Part shown: piece by piece, positions 20-11,193 of the stretch | Position numbering within the stretch: the first letter of the stretch is position 1 | Layout of the letters: every line of letters starts with the position of its first letter | IMG/VR virus record: IMGVR_UViG_2740892233_000023 | From: a virus | Lineage: Duplodnaviria > Heunggongvirae > Uroviricota > Caudoviricetes | DNA: 11,769 nucleotides | Strand: one strand, 5' to 3' | Notes under the pieces: model-generated | Database searches by the model: none | Told to the model about the DNA's origin: nothing | What the model saw: the letters and a program-made list of their open reading frames with translations, nothing else | Position numbers and translations under genes: made by a program

Positions 20-1315
20 TTAACTTTTCATCGCTTCGTTATGGGGCATGGTTGGGGCAAACTCGCTTAACTGTGTATTTAACAGCGTTACCTGCGCATT
101 ATTATTTTCTGACATCCATTTCCCGTACACCTGAAACACCATTTGCGCATCTGCATGGCCCATCTGGTTTGCAATGAATGCCGGGTTAGCTCCTGCTGTT
201 AACGACCAGCAGGCATAAGTGTGTCTCGACTGATACGATTTGCGATGGCGGATTCCGGCACGCTTTACCGCTGCGTCCCACATCTGCCTTATTGAGTCAA
301 CGGTAAAATGGTCACCATAATTTTTTACTTTCGCTGACACTTCAGGTTGAAAAACAAAGGTACATTTTTGTTTCTCTGTTCTGCCGAATTCTCTGAGGTG
401 AACATCGATGATATGCTCTTTGCTCAGTCTCGTTAGTGCCATCTGACTCCGGAGAGCGTCGATTGCGGGCTTAATAAGGTGAATCACACGATTGGTTCCC
501 GCCTGTGTTTTTGGTACTGTAAAACGGTCTTTTGCCAGATTTCTTCTGATTATCATTGTTCCATTTTTCAGATCTATATCTTCCCATCCAAGCGCACAGA
601 GTTCACCAGGGCGAATCCCAGTATAAACGGAAACACACCATAAATTTTTGGCTTGCTGATTTCTGCACGCGTCAATAAGGCGGATAAACTCCTCCCGCGA
701 AAGTGGATCCGGGATGGTTCTCGACTCCTTTAATGGTGAGATCCCCTTAAATGGATTGTCTGCCAGATAACCGTTATCAACACCAAACTGGAACACGGCG
801 TAAAGATTTGTCATGTAATTATTTACGGTAACAGCCGATCTCCCTGGTTGTGTAACAATATAGTTACTTTTGGGGATCTGGTATCCAGTCAGTAACTCTT
901 TACGTACCGCCAGCAATTTTTCTTTATTAATCGATGATGCAAGATTTTTTTCACCGATTATGCTCAGAATATTTTTGATGACGGCACGGTACGTGTTGAG
1001 TGACGTTTTTGCGACTTCAGTTTCTTTCAGTGCCAGAAATTTTTCAGCCAGTTCTTTTATGGTTAAATCTTGTCGGGCCTCACCAAATTTTTCCAGATTG
1101 TGTGAGGCGGGAAACTGTTTTGCATAGTCGAAAGCGCCAGTTTTTATTGCGTAACAAACAGAGGCGCGTAGCTCACCTGCAATGCGCCTGTTTTTTGCTG
1201 TGTCAGGAACCCCAAGATTTTCCCGGACTCTTACACCTTTATAAACAAACCAGATACGTAATTTCCCTCCATGGTTTTCCACGCCTGTCGGATATTTCAT
1301 TTCAGCTTCTCTCAT
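20..1315 (-). CDS. int: Phage tyrosine integrase (lambda-Int-like, with N-terminal arm-binding-type region)
   Basis: 431-aa minus-strand ORF. The C-terminal region has the tyrosine-recombinase pattern (…SRHTYACWSL… then …MVFQVYGKW… with the candidate catalytic Tyr). It sits at the prophage end directly downstream of an excisionase-like gene. Family call from motifs and synteny only. Confidence 0.9.
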   Translation of the reverse strand: MREAEMKYPTGVENHGGKLRIWFVYKGVRVRENLGVPDTAKNRRIAGELRASVCYAIKTGAFDYAKQFPASHNLEKFGEARQDLTIKELAEKFLALKETEVAKTSLNTYRAVIKNILSIIGEKNLASSINKEKLLAVRKELLTGYQIPKSNYIVTQPGRSAVTVNNYMTNLYAVFQFGVDNGYLADNPFKGISPLKESRTIPDPLSREEFIRLIDACRNQQAKNLWCVSVYTGIRPGELCALGWEDIDLKNGTMIIRRNLAKDRFTVPKTQAGTNRVIHLIKPAIDALRSQMALTRLSKEHIIDVHLREFGRTEKQKCTFVFQPEVSAKVKNYGDHFTVDSIRQMWDAAVKRAGIRHRKSYQSRHTYACWSLTAGANPAFIANQMGHADAQMVFQVYGKWMSENNNAQVTLLNTQLSEFAPTMPHNEAMKS

Positions 1316-1658: not shown

Positions 1659-4600
1659 TTAAGAATCAGCCTGACTCGGGATCAGTTTTTGCCAGATAAC
1701 TGAAACGTATTTTGCCTGGTAACGGGCGTCATCAAGTGCATTATGGCGCTCACCTTCGAATGGAATAGCCGTTCTGGCATCGAAGTCTATGGCTTTCCCC
1801 AGCTCAACGATTGTGCGTACATCGCGATCGTTGTAGTAACGCCACGGGCAGGGGATCCCCTGCCGTTCGTATGAACGGCGCAAAATCGTGTTGTCGAAGT
1901 TGGCTCCATTTCCCCAGACCTGAACAAAAAATTCACCGGAGTTTTCGTCGATAAATTCCCGCAATTGTAACAGTGCATCATCTAACGGGATTTCATCGGT
2001 CATAATGGCAGATTGCGCTTCGCGTGATTGCTTAAGCCACCATTTAATGGTGTCCCGATCAATGACCCCGCCAGCAGTTTCCAGATCGATAGTCTTACTA
2101 AATTCCGGCCCCATATCTCCGGTTTGCGGATCGAAAAATATTGCACCTATTGAGATGATCGGGGCATCAGGATTTTTTCCCATGGTTTCAAGGTCGATCA
2201 TTAGATGGTCACACGTCCTGCNNNNNNNNNNTCCGCCAGCAGTTTCCAGATCGATAGTCTTACTAAATTCCGGTCCCATATCTCCGGTTTGCGGATCGAA
2301 AAATATTGCACCTATTGAGATAATCGGGGCATCAGGATTTTTTCCCATGGTTTCAAGGTCGATCATTAGATGGTCACACGTCCTGCTGGTGGATGTGATT
2401 TCTTGATGACCGTTCACCTTAATTGAGTGATCTGCCGTCTCGCCAGTTTCATTATCGCTATCGTGATGCTGATTGCCGTCAGTGTTCTCCTTGTGTGGAT
2501 GTTCAGCGCCTTCCATTTCCTCCGGATCATCTTCCTGAACTTCAACCTGATACTCTTCATCGAATGTTTCCTGGTATGTTGCGTCGCCCATCACCGCGCC
2601 ACAATCAGGGCAGTTGCCGCNNNNNNNNNNAATGCGATGACCGTTCACCGTAATTAAGGGATCTGCCGTCTCGCCAGTTTCACTATCGCTGGCGTGGTCC
2701 TGAGCGCTGCCAGCATTCTCCTTGTGTGGATGTTCAGCGCCTTCCATTTTCTCCGAATCGTCTTCCTGAACTTCAACCAGGTTCTTGTCATCGAATGTTT
2801 CCTGGTATGTTGCGTCGCCCATCACCGCGCCACAATCAGGGCAGTTGCCGCCGCCGGTCTGACCGCAGGCGGTGCAGACTTTTTCCGGTTCCTGTTGCGC
2901 TACTGGCTCAGGTTGTTTCGTTTCTGGCTCGTTTTGTTGCGTATTTGGGCTGTTTTGTTCCGCTTTCTGGTCGTTCTGTTCCGATTCTTGCTGGTTCTGG
3001 TTTACAGAATCGCGGGTTTCAATCCCCTTTACCCATTTCGGATCATTCGGGTCGCTAATCCCTGCAACAAATTCTCCGCGAGAGGCAGCAAGCAACTTAT
3101 CGGCGTCAGGCTGGCTGATATTGGCTGCCTGCATAATTTTGTTTACTTCGTCAGCGGTAANNNNNNNNNNACTCCTCTGACCGCAGGCGGTGCAGATCTT
3201 TTCCGGTTCCTGTTGCACTACTGGTTCAGGTTGTTTCGTTTCTGGCTCGTTTTGTTGCGTATTTGGGCTGTTCTGTTCCGCTTTCTGGTCGTTCTGTTCC
3301 GTTTCTGGCTGATTCTGGTACACAGAATCGCGGGTCTGGATCCCCTTAATCCATTTCGGATCATTCGGGTCGCTAATCCCTTCAACAAATTCTCCGCGAG
3401 AGGCAGCCAGTAATTTGTCTGCATCGACAGGATTTTGGGGCGGAATGTTTTTCCGGGCTTCATGGAGTTCTGCCCGCAGTTTCTGATATTTCGCATCAAC
3501 AGAATTTACCTGTGACTGAGCATCCAGCGGCTGCGTGTCCTGATGATGTTCAGTTGCATCCGGTTCCACTGTTTCAGCCGTTGCCTGTTCATCTGCCATT
3601 GCGCAAGATGGTTGCGGTTTTTCTTCATCATTTTCTTCTTCTTCTGTTTCCTGCTTAGCAGCCAGTTCGCGGTTAACTTCTTCCAGGATATCTTTTTCCG
3701 GTGTATGTCGTGCAGCAGTGAGAGTTTCCTTGCTGGGGTTCTCGTGATCAGTCTCCGTTAAGTAGGCGTTGATATACCCCTGAAGGCGTCCCGGGTAGTG
3801 ATAAAACTCAGGGTGAGCGCTCCGGATAAGTGCAAAAATAGCGGCGCGGGAATAGTCCAGAATACCCGGGGTTGCGCGAAGTGCTGCGGACCATTCTTTG
3901 AACGGACTTTCTCTTTTCAGGACGATTTCTTTTGCGCGACGATAAACGCTGCCCGGAATTTCATAAATATTAAAATCCATCGGAAGTGTGGCTGCTGCAA
4001 TCTCCACATCCAGCGTATCGAAGGTGTGTACTAAATTCGGATTGCGATCGGTTTTGTTCCCGCCACCGGCATTTGCACCGGAAGCCGTACGGGTGATACG
4101 CGAAACACGATTTCCTTTCATCCACTCTTTTGTCAGCAGACCCCGATCAGTGTAGTCAGCGTCCAGGTATGCCTCGAAAAAAGCAGTTATCAGTCCCAGG
4201 TCTGAATTACCGGGATTAGGGAAAACTTTGTCAGTGTCGCGTGCCAGTTTATGAAGGTCGCGAATCTCCAGCGGGTCGAGCAGCTTTGTGTTGTGGGAAA
4301 TGGCCAGGGCAGTAACAGCCGGCAGTTCTTCCGCCCGTGCTATATGTAATGCCTGAAGTTCTTCCCGTGCAACGTGCGTTACTGGTTTTTCGCTGCCGTG
4401 TTGCGCAAGCCAGCGAATGGGCAGCTCCTGACCAGAAACCGGCAGGAGCATATTCTCCTCAATCTCCGTCATGTCTTCGCCGTTGACGTTGGTATTGTCA
4501 GTACTGGCTGGTTTCTCCTGCACGGAGGGAGAGGGCGCGATAAATACCATTGTAATGCCATCTTCCCCGCCTTTTTCGTATCGGTTGCAGAATTCGGTAT

Positions 4601-4835
4601 CAAACACGCCTTCAGGTGGAAGGTCATTCACAACGGGTAAATGGACGCGAACGGGTTTTTTAAAGTCGTCTTCATCATAATCGTTGTCATCCATTGCGGT
4701 AATGCAGCGGGAGATGGCAACAGATAATTTTTTTGCTGTAGTCCAGTAAAAACCACCTTTAATTCCCAGACGTTTTCTGACTTTGTCATTTTTTGCTTCG
4801 CAATATAGCGCAAATTCTTCTTTATCAGTGCTCAT
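1659..4835 (-). CDS. Prophage exonuclease: RecE (exonuclease VIII) N-terminal-like region fused to a C-terminal DEDDh (DnaQ-like) 3'-5' exonuclease domain; ORF crosses three N10 runs
   Basis: Long minus-strand ORF with GAGG SD 9 nt upstream of ATG at 4835. The N-terminal ~600 aa resemble the non-catalytic N-terminal part of RecE-family proteins (from memory). The C-terminal ~180 aa carry DEDDh motifs: Exo I MIDLETMG, Exo [13 protein letters not shown], Exo [15 protein letters not shown]. Protein length is unreliable because the N10 runs at 2222-2231, 2621-2630 and 3161-3170 are flanked by duplicated sequence; the true protein is probably about 830 aa. Confidence 0.8.
2222..2231. other. N10 gap flanked by ~154-bp near-identical copies (2068-2221 vs 2233-2386, 2 mismatches)
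   Basis: Direct comparison of flanking sequence; the copy offset is 165 bp (a multiple of 3). Confidence 0.95.
2621..2630. other. N10 gap flanked by ~228-bp diverged copies (about 2393-2620 vs 2631-2860, roughly 88 percent identity)
   Basis: Direct comparison of flanking sequence; the copy offset is 231 bp (a multiple of 3). Confidence 0.95.
3161..3170. other. N10 gap flanked by ~270-300-bp diverged copies (about 2861-3160 vs 3171-3440, roughly 92 percent identity; ends diverge)
   Basis: Direct comparison of flanking sequence; the copy offset is 318 bp (a multiple of 3). Confidence 0.95.
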
Positions 4836-4927: not shown

Positions 4928-5116
4928 TTATCCAGCCGGTGTTTCGTTATTCAGGTACAGCGATACTTTTTTTACCGGGAGGCATTCACCAGAAATTTTT
5001 TGCTCGTCTCTTGCCTGGAGGCAGGATTCTTTACTGGCATAAATTCCGGTAATCACATTCTGTGATTCACCCGTTATAAGAAAAACCGTCATCATCAGTG
5101 CAAATGCTGAAGTCAT
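4928..5116 (-). CDS. YdfD-like small membrane protein (62 aa)
   Basis: Minus-strand ORF whose ATG overlaps the dicB-like stop (ATGA). N-terminal hydrophobic segment (AFALMMTVFLITG) and two Cys. Position immediately downstream of dicB-like matches the Qin-type ydfD position. Family call from memory and synteny. Confidence 0.6.
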   Translation of the reverse strand: MTSAFALMMTVFLITGESQNVITGIYASKESCLQARDEQKISGECLPVKKVSLYLNNETPAG

Positions 5117-5301
5117 TGACGTTCTCCGAAAATACCAAGTTCAAGAAGAGCAATTCGGGAAAGTATGGAATTATCATTGAGCAGATAAGGCTCATATTTC
5201 CTCATATTAATGGCATCTTCAGTAAACTCCCGGTTACTGAGCAGAACACCAATATCAAAACAACCTTCAGACGTATTAACGTTTGGTAATAACGTTTCCA
5301 T
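5113..5301 (-). CDS. dicB: DicB-like cell-division inhibitor (62 aa)
   Basis: Minus-strand ORF starting at ATG 5301 with GAGGA SD 7 nt upstream. Product METLLPNVNTSEGCFDIGVLLSNREFTEDAINMRK… matches the remembered DicB family (LLPNVNTSEGCF…FTEDAIN) in length and sequence. It lies directly downstream of a DicF-like sRNA, as in the Qin dicB operon. The ORF-track GTG-start extension to 5406 is not needed. Confidence 0.75.
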   Translation of the reverse strand: METLLPNVNTSEGCFDIGVLLSNREFTEDAINMRKYEPYLLNDNSILSRIALLELGIFGERQ

Positions 5302-5470
5302 TATCGCGTCCTCAACAATGAATTTTGTGATGCGGTGCCTGGTGCCTCCAGGTGACGTTAACCAGTTAACAATTAACGCCGGATACAGAGAATCCACCCA
5401 TAACACTGTTTTTGGTTTTAACTGTTCCGCGTGCGCTCAGCCGCATTCACCACATCACAAAATTCACTTT

Positions 5471-5528
5471 AAAAAGGGCGGCAGAGCAGTCACGGAGTAA
5501 AACTGATACCGCCAAACGTCACCAGAAA
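5471..5528 (-). ncRNA. dicF: DicF-like sRNA (copy at end of contig before N-run)
   Basis: Minus-strand sequence TTTCTGGTGACGTTTGGCGGTATCAGTTTTACTCCGTGACTGCTCTGCCGCCCTTTTT matches the remembered 53-nt DicF sRNA followed by a U-run. Located upstream of dicB-like in the same orientation. Confidence 0.7.
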
Positions 5529-5597: not shown

Positions 5598-5655
5598 AAA
5601 AAGGGCGGCAGAGCAGCCAAGGAGTAAAACTGATACCGCCAAACGTCACCAGAAA
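5598..5655 (-). ncRNA. dicF: DicF-like sRNA, variant copy (2 substitutions, CCGUGACUG to CCUUGGCUG)
   Basis: Second copy of the DicF-like sequence on the short segment between two N-runs. It may be an allele or paralogue brought in by contig concatenation rather than a second gene in the same genome. Confidence 0.55.
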
Positions 5656-7619: not shown

Positions 7620-7675
7620 CAATTTACAAATTAAAATTTAACTGGTCAACATGTTTATTATTAAATTTGTAATTG
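7620..7675. promoter_or_regulatory. Imperfect inverted repeat CAATTTACAAATT … AATTTGTAATTG with central AACATGTT palindrome, upstream of higB-like
   Basis: Seen in sequence; AT-rich with a candidate -10 (TATTAT at 7656-7661). Shares the 12-mer AAATTTGTAATT with the immunity operator region at 8904-8915. Confidence 0.45.
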
Positions 7676-7717
7676 CGGGCTGTTGCATCAGTCCCAAAAT
7701 GGGACTACTATACAGTT

Positions 7718-8020
7718 ATGAAGATTATCTCAGTTAAAACACTCAGGGATTTTTGGGCGGAGAATCCTGATGCAGAACAACCGCTAAGGGCATGGGTGGA
7801 TGAGGCGGCAAAAGCTGACTGGAAAAGCCCAGCAGACATTAAGGCACAATACCGAACGGCCAGTATATTGAAAAACCGGCGCGTGGTATTCAACATAAAA
7901 GGTAATCATTACCGTTTAATTGTTGCAATTGCGTATCAGCGAGGATGGGTATTTGTTAAATTCATCGGAAACCACAAGGAATACGATGCTATTGATGCTG
8001 ATACCATCGAACTGGAGTAA
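7718..8020 (+). CDS. higB: HigB-family toxin (RelE/ParE-superfamily mRNA interferase), ~100 aa
   Basis: ORF from ATG 7718 with motif …VFNIKGNHYRLIVAIAYQRGWVFVKFIGNHKEYD… resembling HigB toxins. It lies immediately upstream of an HTH antitoxin-like gene (toxin-first order, typical of higBA). No clear SD; the TTG at 7673 is an alternative start. Confidence 0.75.
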   Translation: MKIISVKTLRDFWAENPDAEQPLRAWVDEAAKADWKSPADIKAQYRTASILKNRRVVFNIKGNHYRLIVAIAYQRGWVFVKFIGNHKEYDAIDADTIELE

Positions 8021-8022
8021 GC

Positions 8023-8382
8023 ATGAACATCAAACCTATTCGTACAGAGCAAGATTATGAAGCCGCGTTGCGTGCTGTTGAACCCATGTTCGACAATGAG
8101 CCCGAAATTGACACGCCTGAGGGGGATTTTTTTGAGGTGATGTGTTTGCTAATAGAGGAATATGAAAAAAAACATTATCCCATTGAGCCACCATCCCCAA
8201 TTGAAGCTATAAGATTTCGCATGGAACAGCAGGGGCTGACTGTGAAAGATTTGGAACCCGCAATTGGGAAAAAAAATCGGGTTTATGAGGTGTTGAATGG
8301 TACCAGAAGCCTTACGTTACCAATGATTCGCCGTCTTCATAATCAATTTGGTATCCCCCTGGAAAGCCTGGTTGGATTATAA
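8023..8382 (+). CDS. higA: HigA-family antitoxin (HTH, XRE-type), 119 aa
   Basis: ATG 2 nt after the higB-like stop, with GGAG SD. C-terminal HTH …GLTVKDLEPAIGKKNRVYEVLNGTRSLTLPMIRRLHNQFGI… resembles HigA antitoxins. Confidence 0.75.
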   Translation: MNIKPIRTEQDYEAALRAVEPMFDNEPEIDTPEGDFFEVMCLLIEEYEKKHYPIEPPSPIEAIRFRMEQQGLTVKDLEPAIGKKNRVYEVLNGTRSLTLPMIRRLHNQFGIPLESLVGL

Positions 8383-8398
8383 AATCTGCTAGTCATTT

Positions 8399-8447
8399 GC
8401 CTGATGCTCGTTCCAGAAAAGGAATGCATCAGGCAGTTTTGTTTTTC
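8399..8447 (+). terminator. Intrinsic terminator for the higBA-like transcript (overlaps the 3' end of the repressor gene)
   Basis: Stem GCCTGATGC / GCATCAGGC with inner TTCC/GGAA stem and AGAAAA loop, followed by AGTTTTGTTTTT on the plus strand. Confidence 0.55.
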
Positions 8448-8821
8448 TGCCGCAGTAACTCTTCAAGTTTCCGTTTATAGAAATCGCGTTTTTGCTCCAT
8501 ATCACGAATGATCTGCTCTGCGTCGCTTTGAGGTAACTCATCTAAAAGCGATATGATTTTTCGTTGTTGTTCTGTAAGTTGCGGTTGGTTGTCATTACTG
8601 GATACAGCCATTTTATCGCCGAGAGTTTCTTCTTCCATAAAGAACCAATGGACGGGATGTTGTGAGAGCTCTGCTAATTTTTCCAGTTTATCCATTCTTG
8701 GCATCACGCCTTTCAACCAACCTTGCACGGATTGGGGTTTTACACCAAGACGTCTTCCCAGCTCTGACTGGTTTATATTCAATTCCTGCAACACCTGCTG
8801 AAGGCGTTTTACAAAGATCAT
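8429..8821 (-). CDS. Prophage repressor, DicA/RacR-like (N-terminal HTH, no S24 peptidase domain)
   Basis: Minus-strand ORF; likely start is ATG at 8819-8821 with GAGGGG SD. HTH …NQSELGRRLGVKPQSVQGWLKG… and a C-terminal region resembling the DicA C-terminus (…LPQSDAEQIIRDMEQKRDFYKRKLEELL…). Divergent from a Cro-like gene. Confidence 0.8.
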   Translation of the reverse strand: MIFVKRLQQVLQELNINQSELGRRLGVKPQSVQGWLKGVMPRMDKLEKLAELSQHPVHWFFMEEETLGDKMAVSSNDNQPQLTEQQRKIISLLDELPQSDAEQIIRDMEQKRDFYKRKLEELLRQKNKTA

Positions 8822-8874
8822 CACCACCCCTCGTAAACTAGTTCCGCGATCCTACAGAAAAAATTGATAAGTGG

Positions 8875-8947: not shown

Positions 8948-9208
8948 ATGCAAAAAAGTACTCAAGTGAAAATCCTGTCAATAATGAGCCAATCAGAATT
9001 AGGGCGTCGTCTTGGTAAAACACCGCAAACCATAAGTGGGTGGTTTAAAAAACGAGTGCCAGCGGAGGAGGTTATACCAGCATGTGAGGCGCTTGACTGG
9101 GGAGTAACTCCGCATGAATTGCGCCCTGATAAATACCCTAATCCAACCGATGGTTTACCTGTTGAGTATCAGGCTAACGCACAAGCAGCGGCGGGAGTTG
9201 ATTCATGA
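8948..9208 (+). CDS. Cro-like HTH regulator (YdaS family)
   Basis: 86-aa ORF with GGAGGG SD 5 nt upstream. HTH …SQSELGRRLGKTPQTISGWFKK… closely parallels the repressor HTH. Divergent from the repressor; YdaT-like gene follows with ATGA overlap. Confidence 0.8.
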   Translation: MQKSTQVKILSIMSQSELGRRLGKTPQTISGWFKKRVPAEEVIPACEALDWGVTPHELRPDKYPNPTDGLPVEYQANAQAAAGVDS

Positions 9209-9642
9209 AAATCAAGCATGAGCACATCCGCATGGCGATGAATGCGTGGCTGCTTTATCCGAGGGTAGGGCGCAAAAAAATCGCTGATGATATAGCGACA
9301 GCATATTTTGAGCTTGAAATGACTTATCCACCAATGCATGACACCTCTACGACAGAGGGTATTGGATTGAACATACAAAATATTTTTCGCTGGCTTGAAA
9401 AGGATACGCCTGATGCTGTTGAAAAAATTCAGGCACTAATTCCAGCTATCCTGACTGTTCTTCCGCGTGAACTGCGTTATCACCTCAGTATTTTTGACAC
9501 TGTTGAGCGCCGTGCATTACTGGCGGCCCAGGAAGCGTTGAGCACGGCAATTGATGCGCATGATGATGCAGTCCAGGCAGTTTACCGGAAAGCGTATTTC
9601 AGCGACGGCGGGTCATCCGGCGAGTCTGTTGTGGTGCATTGA
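9205..9642 (+). CDS. YdaT-family protein (CII-like regulator of Rac-type prophages)
   Basis: 145-aa ORF starting MKIKHEHI…, translationally coupled to the ydaS-like gene. Family call from memory and synteny. Confidence 0.75.
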   Translation: MKIKHEHIRMAMNAWLLYPRVGRKKIADDIATAYFELEMTYPPMHDTSTTEGIGLNIQNIFRWLEKDTPDAVEKIQALIPAILTVLPRELRYHLSIFDTVERRALLAAQEALSTAIDAHDDAVQAVYRKAYFSDGGSSGESVVVH

Positions 9643-9728
9643 TATTTATGCCAGACCCCTGCTGATTCTGTTGATTGGGGAATCACAGAATATCACCAGA
9701 GGATGGTTCGTCACAAGATGAGGCAATT

Positions 9729-10739
9729 ATGGCCGCATTACCATACATGCAACTGTACATAGCTGATTACCTGGCTGACACCATGCATTTGTCCGCAGAG
9801 GAGCACGGTGCGTATTTGTTGCTGATGTTCAATTACTGGCAAACAGGGAAACCAATACCTAAAAACAGGCTGGCAAAAATTTCCCGTCTGACTAACGAGC
9901 GATGGGCTGATGTGGAACCATCCTTGCGGGAGTTTTTTTGCGATAACAGCGATGAATGGGTGCATCTTCGGATTGAGGAAGATCTGGCATCAGTCAGGGA
10001 AAAATTGACCAAAAAATCAGCCGCCGGAAAAGCATCTGTTCAGGCCAGAAGAAGCAGAAAGGAAGCATATGTTCAAACAAAACAAGAGAGAGATTTAACA
10101 GGTGTTCAAACAAATGTTGGTGTTGTGTTTGAACATGACGCAAACACAAAAGCAACTAATAAAGATACAGATCTAAAAGAATTAAACCCCACACATAACG
10201 TGCGTGAACGCGAGAGTATTCCGACCAGTGAGTCGCATGGTGCGCCGTTGCAGACAGCCGAACCTGAATACCTGGACGGCCTGAGCGAACCGATCGGGAA
10301 ATTTTCGATGACTACTGTCTGGCAGCCGTCGCCGGATTTTCGACAACGGGCAGCAGTGTGGGGTATGGCTCTGCCTGAGCCGGAATTTACACCTGCAGAG
10401 CTTGCCGCATTCCGGGATTACTGGATGGCGGAGGGGAAGGTTTTCACGCAGGTTCAGTGGGAGCAGAAATTTGCCCGCCACGTGCAGCACGTCAGGGCAC
10501 AGGTAAAACCAGTCAGCAAGGGGGTAAGCCATGCAGCATCAGGTGGCACGGCATCACGGGCAGTTCAGGAAATCCGGGCAGCACGCGAACAGTGGGAACG
10601 TGACAACGGATTTATCAGCAACGGAAACGGCCTGGAAGCTGTGGGAGCTTATGGGGGAGGTGTATTCGAACCGCTGGACACAGAAGAACGGGGCCGCACC
10701 TTCGAAGCTCTGGATTGCCCAGATTGGCGCGATGACTGA
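9729..10739 (+). CDS. Replication initiator-like protein, DUF1376/YdaU family N-terminal domain with additional C-terminal domain
   Basis: Start chosen at ATG 9729 (GAGG SD 5 nt upstream) rather than the ORF-track 9675. N-terminus MAALPYMQLYIADYLADTMHLSAEEHGAYLLLMFNYW… fits the DUF1376 pattern. A low-complexity linker contains iteron-like DNA repeats. Confidence 0.7.
   Translation: MAALPYMQLYIADYLADTMHLSAEEHGAYLLLMFNYWQTGKPIPKNRLAKISRLTNERWADVEPSLREFFCDNSDEWVHLRIEEDLASVREKLTKKSAAGKASVQARRSRKEAYVQTKQERDLTGVQTNVGVVFEHDANTKATNKDTDLKELNPTHNVRERESIPTSESHGAPLQTAEPEYLDGLSEPIGKFSMTTVWQPSPDFRQRAAVWGMALPEPEFTPAELAAFRDYWMAEGKVFTQVQWEQKFARHVQHVRAQVKPVSKGVSHAASGGTASRAVQEIRAAREQWERDNGFISNGNGLEAVGAYGGGVFEPLDTEERGRTFEALDCPDWRDD
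10070..10152. repeat. Iteron-like repeats (TGTTCAAACAAA x2 direct, plus an inverted TTTGAACA and a degenerate copy) in an AT-rich patch inside the initiator gene; candidate ori
   Basis: 12-bp perfect direct repeat at 10070-10081 and 10104-10115; inverted copy at about 10127-10134; degenerate CAAACACAAAAG at 10141-10152. Lies in the inter-domain linker-coding region. Confidence 0.45.
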
Positions 10740-11193
10740 ACAGCAAATCCGGCTGGTCTGCCGTCAGTGCATGGACCGCTGCCGGGCGGGTGAAACGTGG
10801 CCCCCGGACCTGGCTGAGTTTGTTGCACTGATTTCGGAGAGTGGGGCAAATCCATTTGGTCTTACGGTGGATGCAGTGATGGAAGAGTACCGGCGCTGGC
10901 GCAATGAATCCTGGCGATACGACGGGAGTGATAAATACCCGTGGCCACAGCCTGTGCTGTACCACATCTGCCTCGAAATGCGTACCAGAGGGATTGAGCG
11001 CCAGATGACGCAGGGTGAGTTAAAACGACTTGCGGAACGGCAACTGACGAAATGGGCAAAGCATGTTGGTAACGGGATGAGTGTTCCGCCAGTGCGACGA
11101 CAACTGGAAGGGGCGAAACACCCGCAAGGGCCAACGCCAATTGAGCGGCTGAAACAGGAATACGAACGCCGGAAGGCAGCTGGTTTTATTTGA
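10531..11193 (+). CDS. Lambda P-like replication protein (helicase loader)
   Basis: C-terminal two-thirds resemble lambda P from memory (…PDLAEFVAL… YPWPQPVLYHICLEMRTRGIERQMTQGELKRLAERQLTKWAKHVGNG…). ATG 10531 has a strong AAGGGGGT SD but overlaps the upstream gene by 209 bp out of frame; an alternative start at ATG 10732 overlaps its stop as ATGACTGA. Confidence 0.65.
   Translation: MQHQVARHHGQFRKSGQHANSGNVTTDLSATETAWKLWELMGEVYSNRWTQKNGAAPSKLWIAQIGAMTEQQIRLVCRQCMDRCRAGETWPPDLAEFVALISESGANPFGLTVDAVMEEYRRWRNESWRYDGSDKYPWPQPVLYHICLEMRTRGIERQMTQGELKRLAERQLTKWAKHVGNGMSVPPVRRQLEGAKHPQGPTPIERLKQEYERRKAAGFI

Follow-up and report, generated by a model that had tools for sequence, protein, structure and literature searches.

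Where does replication begin in a Rac-type prophage, and does a cluster of short repeats inside the replication initiator gene mark the place? The question is raised by IMG/VR virus record IMGVR_UViG_2740892233_000023, 11,769 nucleotides of phage DNA (hereafter the window, i.e., the whole stretch analysed), which represents the early part of a Rac-type lambdoid prophage from Escherichia coli, its gene order being given by Pfam and Rfam. The original prediction held that iteron-like repeats in the inter-domain linker of the initiator form a candidate origin of replication, in parallel to ori-lambda. Comparison with homologous loci supports this reading: the repeats at 10070-10152 and the AT-rich stretch next to them, at 10153-10190, are taken here to be the replication origin of the prophage, located within its own initiator gene, with a probability of about 0.72. 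The features concerned are as follows.

9729..10739, plus strand: replication initiator gene (YdaU-like), from translation and Pfam; ATG at 9729 preceded by GAGG
10070..10079, plus strand: site 1, TGTTCAAACA; the 12-mer extends to 10081
10103..10112, plus strand: site 2, TGTTCAAACA; the 12-mer extends to 10114
10126..10135, minus strand: site 3, the same 10-mer; the plus strand reads TGTTTGAACA
10115..10152: extra half-sites around site 3, TGTT at 10115 and 10121, AACA at 10143, from the half-site map and inverted repeat I2
10153..10180: conserved tract CAACTAATAAAGATACAGATCTAAAAGA, containing (NNAGAT)n / (GATACA)n hexamer units and a GATC, within a 30% G+C stretch at 10147-10190
10159..10186: mosaic junction, given by BLAST alignment end points at query positions 485-502 of 9675-11193
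10732..11193, plus strand: lambda-P-like helicase-loader gene, PF06992, E 3e-15, profile positions 53-161 of 162

Repeat cluster and adjoining tract

The initiator carries an N-terminal DUF1376 domain (PF07120; residues 4-86, coded at about 9741-9989), matched over the full profile (1-86) with 90.6 bits against a gathering cut-off of 30.1 (E 8.4e-26), and a DnaT-type domain (PF17948; residues 191-257, coded at about 10302-10502; E 2.9e-17). These two were the only Pfam matches at E values up to 0.01; no Phage_rep_O (lambda O) domain was found, and judged by its predicted domains the initiator is not a lambda O homologue. The gene is 100% identical in E. coli strain 03_3013, where it is annotated as 'DUF1376 domain-containing protein'. 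A P-like helicase-loader gene comes next, as had been predicted, its start overlapping the initiator stop codon (ATGACTGA). It is annotated as 'replication protein P' in RefSeq genomes; the protein is short (153 amino acids), and the match covers only the C-terminal two thirds of the PF06992 profile.

The two exact 12-mer direct repeats of the original prediction are present: TGTTCAAACAAA occurs exactly twice on the plus strand, at 10070-10081 and 10103-10114. Their distance, given earlier as 34 bp, is in fact 33 nucleotides from start to start, with 21 nucleotides between the copies. The predicted inverted copy, TGTTCAAACACA, lies on the minus strand at 10124-10135 and has one mismatch; the degenerate copy of the prediction can be identified with a group of half-sites, GCAAACACAAAAG, at about 10140-10152. 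The exact core shared by all three copies is the 10-bp sequence TGTTCAAACA (reverse complement TGTTTGAACA), a quasi-palindrome of the form TGTT-CA-AACA, and its three occurrences are the only ones in the 11.8-kb window. From centre to centre the sites are spaced by 33 and 23 bp, or approximately three and two helical turns, so they would lie roughly on one face of the helix.

The cluster codes for initiator residues of about 114-141, in the linker between the DUF1376 and DnaT-type domains, and the AT-rich patch reported there was found again, with a G+C content of 0.36 at 10060-10146. This falls to 0.30 at 10147-10190; elsewhere in the initiator gene it amounts to 0.47 (9729-10039) and 0.58 (10191-10739). 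The conserved tract at 10153-10180 is the proposed DNA unwinding site.

The arrangement was compared with chance in several ways. None of 5000 dinucleotide shuffles of 10040-10200 produced two direct plus one inverted exact 10-mer; resampling of codons under a constant peptide produced this combination in 2 of 5000 trials. A direct repeat of at least 12 nucleotides was more easily obtained (24 of 5000 shuffles; 47 of 5000 codon resamplings). At 10060-10160 there are 11 TGTT/AACA half-sites, where 101 nucleotides of the window have 1.22 on average (this count was reached in 0 of 10000 shuffles), and all 101-nucleotide windows with at least 10 half-sites are located at the cluster, which is also the top of 561 windows of 100 nucleotides by 9-mer repeat score. 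A whole-window motif scan allowing two mismatches did not reach significance alone (31 of 200 shuffles); significance attaches to the clustering and not to the motif count of the whole window.

Two further origin signals were searched for. DnaA boxes (TTATNCACA, one mismatch allowed) occur 9 times in the window, 10 being expected, and none lies within 700 nucleotides of the repeats. An oriC-type 13-mer (GATCTNTTNTTTT, two mismatches allowed) has one match in the tract, at 10161-10173 on the minus strand; its count in the window is below chance, and the match is not regarded as evidence.

Conservation of the sites and of the hexamer tract

Close relatives were represented by 44 distinct variants from IMG/VR with an N-terminal domain 96-100% identical. 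The mean number of minor haplotypes per column was 0.53 in the cores, 2.94 in the rest of the linker and 1.62 at third codon positions of the conserved domain; polymorphism is some five times lower in the cores than in the linker around them, and the spacers drift. Because these sequences are closely related and non-independent, the test is supportive and not decisive. The conserved unit is the 10-bp quasi-palindrome and not the 12-mer, the extra 'AA' of which shows no conservation in copy 2.

An alignment across genera (Escherichia, Citrobacter, Enterobacter, Kluyvera, Klebsiella, Pluralibacter) pairs site 2 with YGTTC(A)AACR and site 3 with YGTTKGAACR of the other genera. The half-site CAAC(A/G) is conserved across genera, and the tract CAACTAATAAAGAT(A/C)CAGAT...AGATCTAAAAGA is nearly invariant in an alignment with a mean column identity of only 50%. 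A GATC (Dam site, 10170-10173, within AGATCTAAAAGA) ends the hexamer tract in all enterobacterial versions (alignment columns of about 160-185). The same GATC is also seen in the unrelated HTH_36-type initiator of PPompW phages (locus L003, at about 3005).

More distant homologues were collected by a scan of one genome per species, which gave 80 loci with DUF1376 domains 35-96% identical to the query. Repeat density was ranked in 100-nucleotide windows over 75 sequences (the window and 74 loci, about 5.3 kb each): the 100 nucleotides just 3' of the DUF1376 domain were the most repeat-rich of the locus in 40 of the 75 and within the top 2% in 50. The layout after the domain is the same: short repeats, direct and inverted, come first, and behind them, in most DUF1376 loci (L101, L113 and L117-L125 at about 2880-2960; L130-L163 at about 2850-2960), a hexamer tandem tract. 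The check proposed with the original prediction, repeat conservation set against protein conservation in homologues, speaks in its favour: most distant homologues have an equivalent cluster after DUF1376, even where it is untranslated.

The core differs between lineages. Rac and Citrobacter braakii have TGTTC(A)AACA, and in them TGTT/AACA is found 11-12 times and CGTT/AACG 0 times. In other gamma- and betaproteobacteria CGTT/AACG is found 5-9 times; the core reads CGTTCAACG / CCGTTKGAAC in other Enterobacterales, in Pseudomonas, Rahnella and Serratia, and also in Propionivibrio and Azotobacter. A planctomycete metagenome-assembled genome has GCGAACGCA, Acidobacteria and some betaproteobacteria have GCAATGC / GCATTGC, and alphaproteobacteria have cores like GCAAATGC. 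The type of hexamer tract tracks the type of site, i.e., (GATACA)n, (TCACCN)n or (CAGAAC/CAGATACC)n. The (GATACA) unit is present in 2-8 copies at the same position in distant homologues, and hexamer tracts occur in coding and in non-coding DNA. In one subfamily (L110, L111, L112, L114) a T5orf172/MUG113 domain is inserted between DUF1376 and the tract coding for threonine-aspartate (TD), and the CGTT-type sites are replaced by GTAGCTACG palindromes (at least five in L110, 2900-3165), still followed by (GATACA)n.

Could the repeats be the by-product of a repeated peptide, or of a slippage-prone, low-complexity linker (VQT...VQT, TDTD), without the DNA as such playing a role? Both direct copies do encode V-Q-T, and translation of the hexamer tracts gives dipeptide repeats (TD, SP or EP). 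The inverted copy, however, encodes VFEH, and resampling under the same peptide reproduced the pattern only at the rate of 2 in 5000 given above. TD tracts always use ACA GAT, despite a share of ACA among threonine codons of only 6-40% in those loci; here the loci and not the copies are the independent units, because copies within a tract arise by slippage. In four loci (L130, L139, L149, L156) an open reading frame consisting of DUF1376 only (about 110-140 amino acids) stops before the repeats, so that repeats and hexamer tract persist in non-coding DNA or in another frame. The sole open reading frame that spans the repeats in L130 (2900-3035) is in a different reading frame from that of L134, and the next gene after these non-coding repeats in L130 codes for a superfamily 2 (ResIII/Helicase_C) helicase. 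An origin of the repeats in the peptide, already disfavoured, is accordingly given very little credence.

A hairpin of RNA or DNA, formed by the inverted copies and regulating the initiator-loader operon, is likewise very improbable. The arms at 10069-10084 and 10121-10136 are 94% complementary, and the DNA fold has a z of -2.09, with 6 of 200 shuffles folding as well. This excess of stability is modest, though, and no compensatory changes preserving the pairing between sites were seen across homologues. The Rfam scan of the window returned two copies of DicF only, and no RNA family at the repeat cluster. Neither a promoter-like site nor a plus-strand terminator-like site was found in the cluster, the nearest terminator-like matches being on the minus strand at 10188-10208. 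Rahnella L101 and L106 have three direct copies without a partner, so conservation concerns the site and not a hairpin.

Module exchange, oriJ and known origins

The initiator gene is a mosaic with its joint at 10159-10186. The part upstream of the junction (N-domain and repeats) is common to ydaU of E. coli K-12, and the part downstream (C-domain and P-like gene) is common to PPompW-type phages. Positions 9722-10172 are 95.3% identical to K-12-type ydaU and unrelated to it downstream of about 10172; K-12 ydaU and phage 683R6 agree at 95% in N-domain and repeats and then continue with an unrelated C-terminal part and a DnaC/IstB-like loader. PPompW and Stx (Shiga toxin) phages have the same DnaT-type C-domain and P-like gene behind an HTH_36-type N-domain, and these versions carry a different array at the equivalent place, ACACCCAAA(AAC) in about five direct copies. 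Three combinations are therefore found: DUF1376 and TGTT sites with the DnaT-type domain and P-like gene; DUF1376 and TGTT sites with another C-domain and a DnaC-like gene; and HTH_36 and ACACCCAAA with the DnaT-type domain and P-like gene. It follows that the repeats travel with the N-terminal domain, and not with the C-domain or the loader. In lambdoid O genes, too, iterons and N-domain form one module and C-domain and P another. At the level of sequence the comparison ties the sites to the DUF1376 domain; the cores, conserved above both the linker and the synonymous-site background, are co-inherited with it.

The same junction offers another explanation, in which the conserved DNA is homology at a module boundary that serves recombination, without a role in initiation, and the repeats are low-complexity by-products. 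Hundreds of E. coli genomes do have their break points at 10159-10186, within the conserved AGATCTAAAA/hexamer tract. Boundary homology would account for the junction tract only, however, and not for the lineage-specific quasi-palindromic sites upstream of it; it leaves unexplained the concerted change from TGTT to CGTT on both arms and the retention of sites in the non-coding DNA of split genes in distant phyla, and a functionally conserved tract would turn into a recombination hotspot anyway. This explanation is considered quite unlikely. Many database proteins of the initiator family (protein hits P0001-P0108) are partial and end in or just past the linker, a sign that assemblies may often be interrupted at this mosaic junction with its repeats, which several prophages of one genome have in common.

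For oriJ, the origin of the K-12 Rac prophage, the source given is Diaz et al. 1979. The Rac prophage has a functional origin of this name, described as an 'active origin' (PMC3945230), and Potrykus et al. 2000 is cited for the K-12 Rac oriJ in PMC11014345. The K-12 prophage is of the same type as that in the window, and its ydaU carries the identical three cores, at NC_000913.3 1,421,511-1,421,576; the prophage of the window differs in the C-domain of its initiator and in having a P-like loader instead of the DnaC-like YdaV. Primers published as 'framing oriJ' (supplement of PMC3945230) map inside K-12 ydaV, at 1,422,240-1,422,394 (3241-3395 of locus L004), at the Walker A region. The segment they enclose lacks origin-like features, being of ordinary composition without repeats or an AT-rich patch, and is absent from the prophage of the window. 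The position of oriJ in the literature or databases may be imprecise; literature searches yielded no nucleotide-level description of oriJ and no link of DUF1376 or ydaU to an origin.

The sites might also be bound by the DUF1376 protein or another phage regulator as an operator, an autoregulatory or a partition-like site, and not mark a start of replication. The comparative data, which connect the sites with the domain, are silent on the events after binding; the want of DnaA boxes nearby and the placing of the published primers in ydaV fit this explanation as well. On the other hand, the position mirrors that of classical in-gene origins, 3' of a DNA-binding domain, with an AT-rich tract and with helicase or loader genes downstream, and the repeats are swapped with the N-domain exactly as lambdoid iterons are. 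The other regulator of the operon, YdaT (CII-like), has an operator of its own: an exact match, TTGATTCATGAAAATCAA, to the published motif 5'-TTGATTN6AATCAA-3' (PMC9986795) lies at 9198-9215, where it overlaps the stop codon of the ydaS-like gene and the start codon of the ydaT-like gene. Because this motif sits elsewhere and is unrelated to TGTTCAAACA, an operator for that regulator is unlikely at the cluster, and an operator function in general is held to be unlikely.

For the reading as an origin, the closest model is ori-lambda, which lies in the middle of the initiator gene and consists of repeated initiator-binding sites followed by an AT-rich tract (PMC7466680). Like this origin, as seen in lambda, 933W and P27, the cluster has an in-gene position, dyad-symmetric sites, an AT-rich tract and a P-family gene downstream. 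A further likeness is that N-domain and sites form one module and C-domain and loader another, which on the lambda side is established knowledge. Unlike ori-lambda, the locus combines a DUF1376 plus DnaT-type initiator, without Phage_rep_O, with two direct and one inverted 10-bp sites and half-sites (ori-lambda having four to six 19-bp iterons, all direct), a hexamer tandem tract that is conserved, and the short P-like protein. As Pfam finds DUF1376 and the DnaT-type domain only, the locus would work like ori-lambda and not belong to the O/ori-lambda family by descent. Of the parallel with ori-lambda, layout, AT-rich tract, co-inheritance with the N-domain and P-type gene hold good, and kinship of the initiator with lambda O does not. 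What the comparisons support is a putative in-gene, lambda-like origin, one whose initiator comes from an unrelated family and which has a conserved hexamer tract in addition. The iteron origins of theta plasmids (pSC101, RK2, R6K type) are similar in having repeated sites for an initiator of winged-helix type beside an AT-rich unwinding region; they differ in the initiator family, in their direct 17-22-bp iterons and in their DnaA boxes, as opposed to 10-bp sites of mixed orientation in coding DNA with no DnaA boxes nearby.

A mechanism can be proposed from these parts. The DUF1376 domain, probably as a dimer, would bind the TGTTCAAACA sites and the flanking TGTT/AACA half-sites, and the resulting nucleoprotein complex would destabilise the adjoining 30% G+C tract CAACTAATAAAGATACAGATCTAAAAGA. 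Going by the domain identities, the DnaT-like C-terminal domain might then hold single-stranded DNA and/or recruit the P-like loader with host DnaB. Rightward early transcription from a promoter on the ydaS side would cross the site, as in lambda. The hexamer array may be a repeated single-strand recognition or unwinding element with a logic like that of DnaA-trios, and not a mere AT-rich spacer.

The weak likeness of the modelled DUF1376 domain to winged-helix DNA binders and the existence of a functional Rac origin are supporting points for the origin reading. Several observations weigh against it, apart from the non-independence of the 44 variants. The sites are short (10 bp) and few (3), lambda and Stx phages having four to six iterons of 19 bp. 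Site 1 is restricted to the Rac lineage and finds no match in the alignment across genera; Rac-SA53, a deposited phage, and a handful of further variants have it in altered form (ATATTCAAAAAA). In the ranking of distant loci, 25 of the 75 fell below the top 2% for repeats. K-12 Rac is described as replication-defective in recent papers (PMC11014345), and the primer segment attributed to oriJ is about 660 bp downstream of the K-12 repeat sites. The AlphaFold model of the DUF1376 domain is confident (predicted local distance difference test, pLDDT, 85.8); a fold search with it against the PDB gave weak matches to winged-helix DNA binders, the best with E 0.024 and a template modelling (TM) score of 0.44, and because there are only these weak matches a DNA-binding role of DUF1376 is presumed.

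If the origin reading is true, the long-known and poorly located Rac origin would be placed at specific nucleotides, and the exact placement of mosaic joints in replication modules would be explained. The more interesting part of the finding is its generality in the family, which is put forward tentatively, at somewhat less than an even chance: DUF1376 could be the origin-recognition domain of widespread phage and prophage initiators, with a two-part origin 3' of the domain, quasi-palindromic sites and then a hexamer array. Among the groups covered by this same proposal would be gamma-, beta- and alphaproteobacteria and Acidobacteria. An origin-binding role would then fall to a Pfam domain without an assigned function that heads Rac-type replication modules and is present in phages of several phyla, and inverted and direct short repeats just after the DUF1376 domain, with a hexamer array behind them, could serve as an annotation rule. 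The hexamer array raises the question of how DUF1376 initiators open DNA.

Neighbouring genes in the window

The further genes of the window, from the integrase side to the far side of the loader gene, are those listed here.

20-1315, minus strand: integrase gene, followed by excisionase, from Pfam
1659-4835, minus strand: RecE-like protein of 1058 amino acids, with Exonuc_VIII at residues 57-189 and a C-terminal Rv2179c-like 3'-5' exonuclease domain at residues 877-1048
5113-5406, minus strand: dicB gene
5476-5527 and 5603-5654, minus strand: two tandem copies of the DicF antisense small RNA, upstream of dicB (Rfam RF00039, 76.7 and 71.5 bits)
7673-8020: HigB-like toxin gene, part of a HigB/HigA-like pair adjoining the prophage repressor gene
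8023-8382: HTH_3 antitoxin-like gene (HigA-like), adjoining the prophage repressor gene
8429-8827, minus strand: prophage repressor gene
8948-9208: ydaS-like gene
9205-9642: ydaT-like gene
3' of the lambda-P-like gene: DUF1627 gene

The 1.5-kb replication segment is 100% identical to that of E. coli strain 03_3013, and matching DNA was found in 1842 of 5426 complete E. coli genomes.

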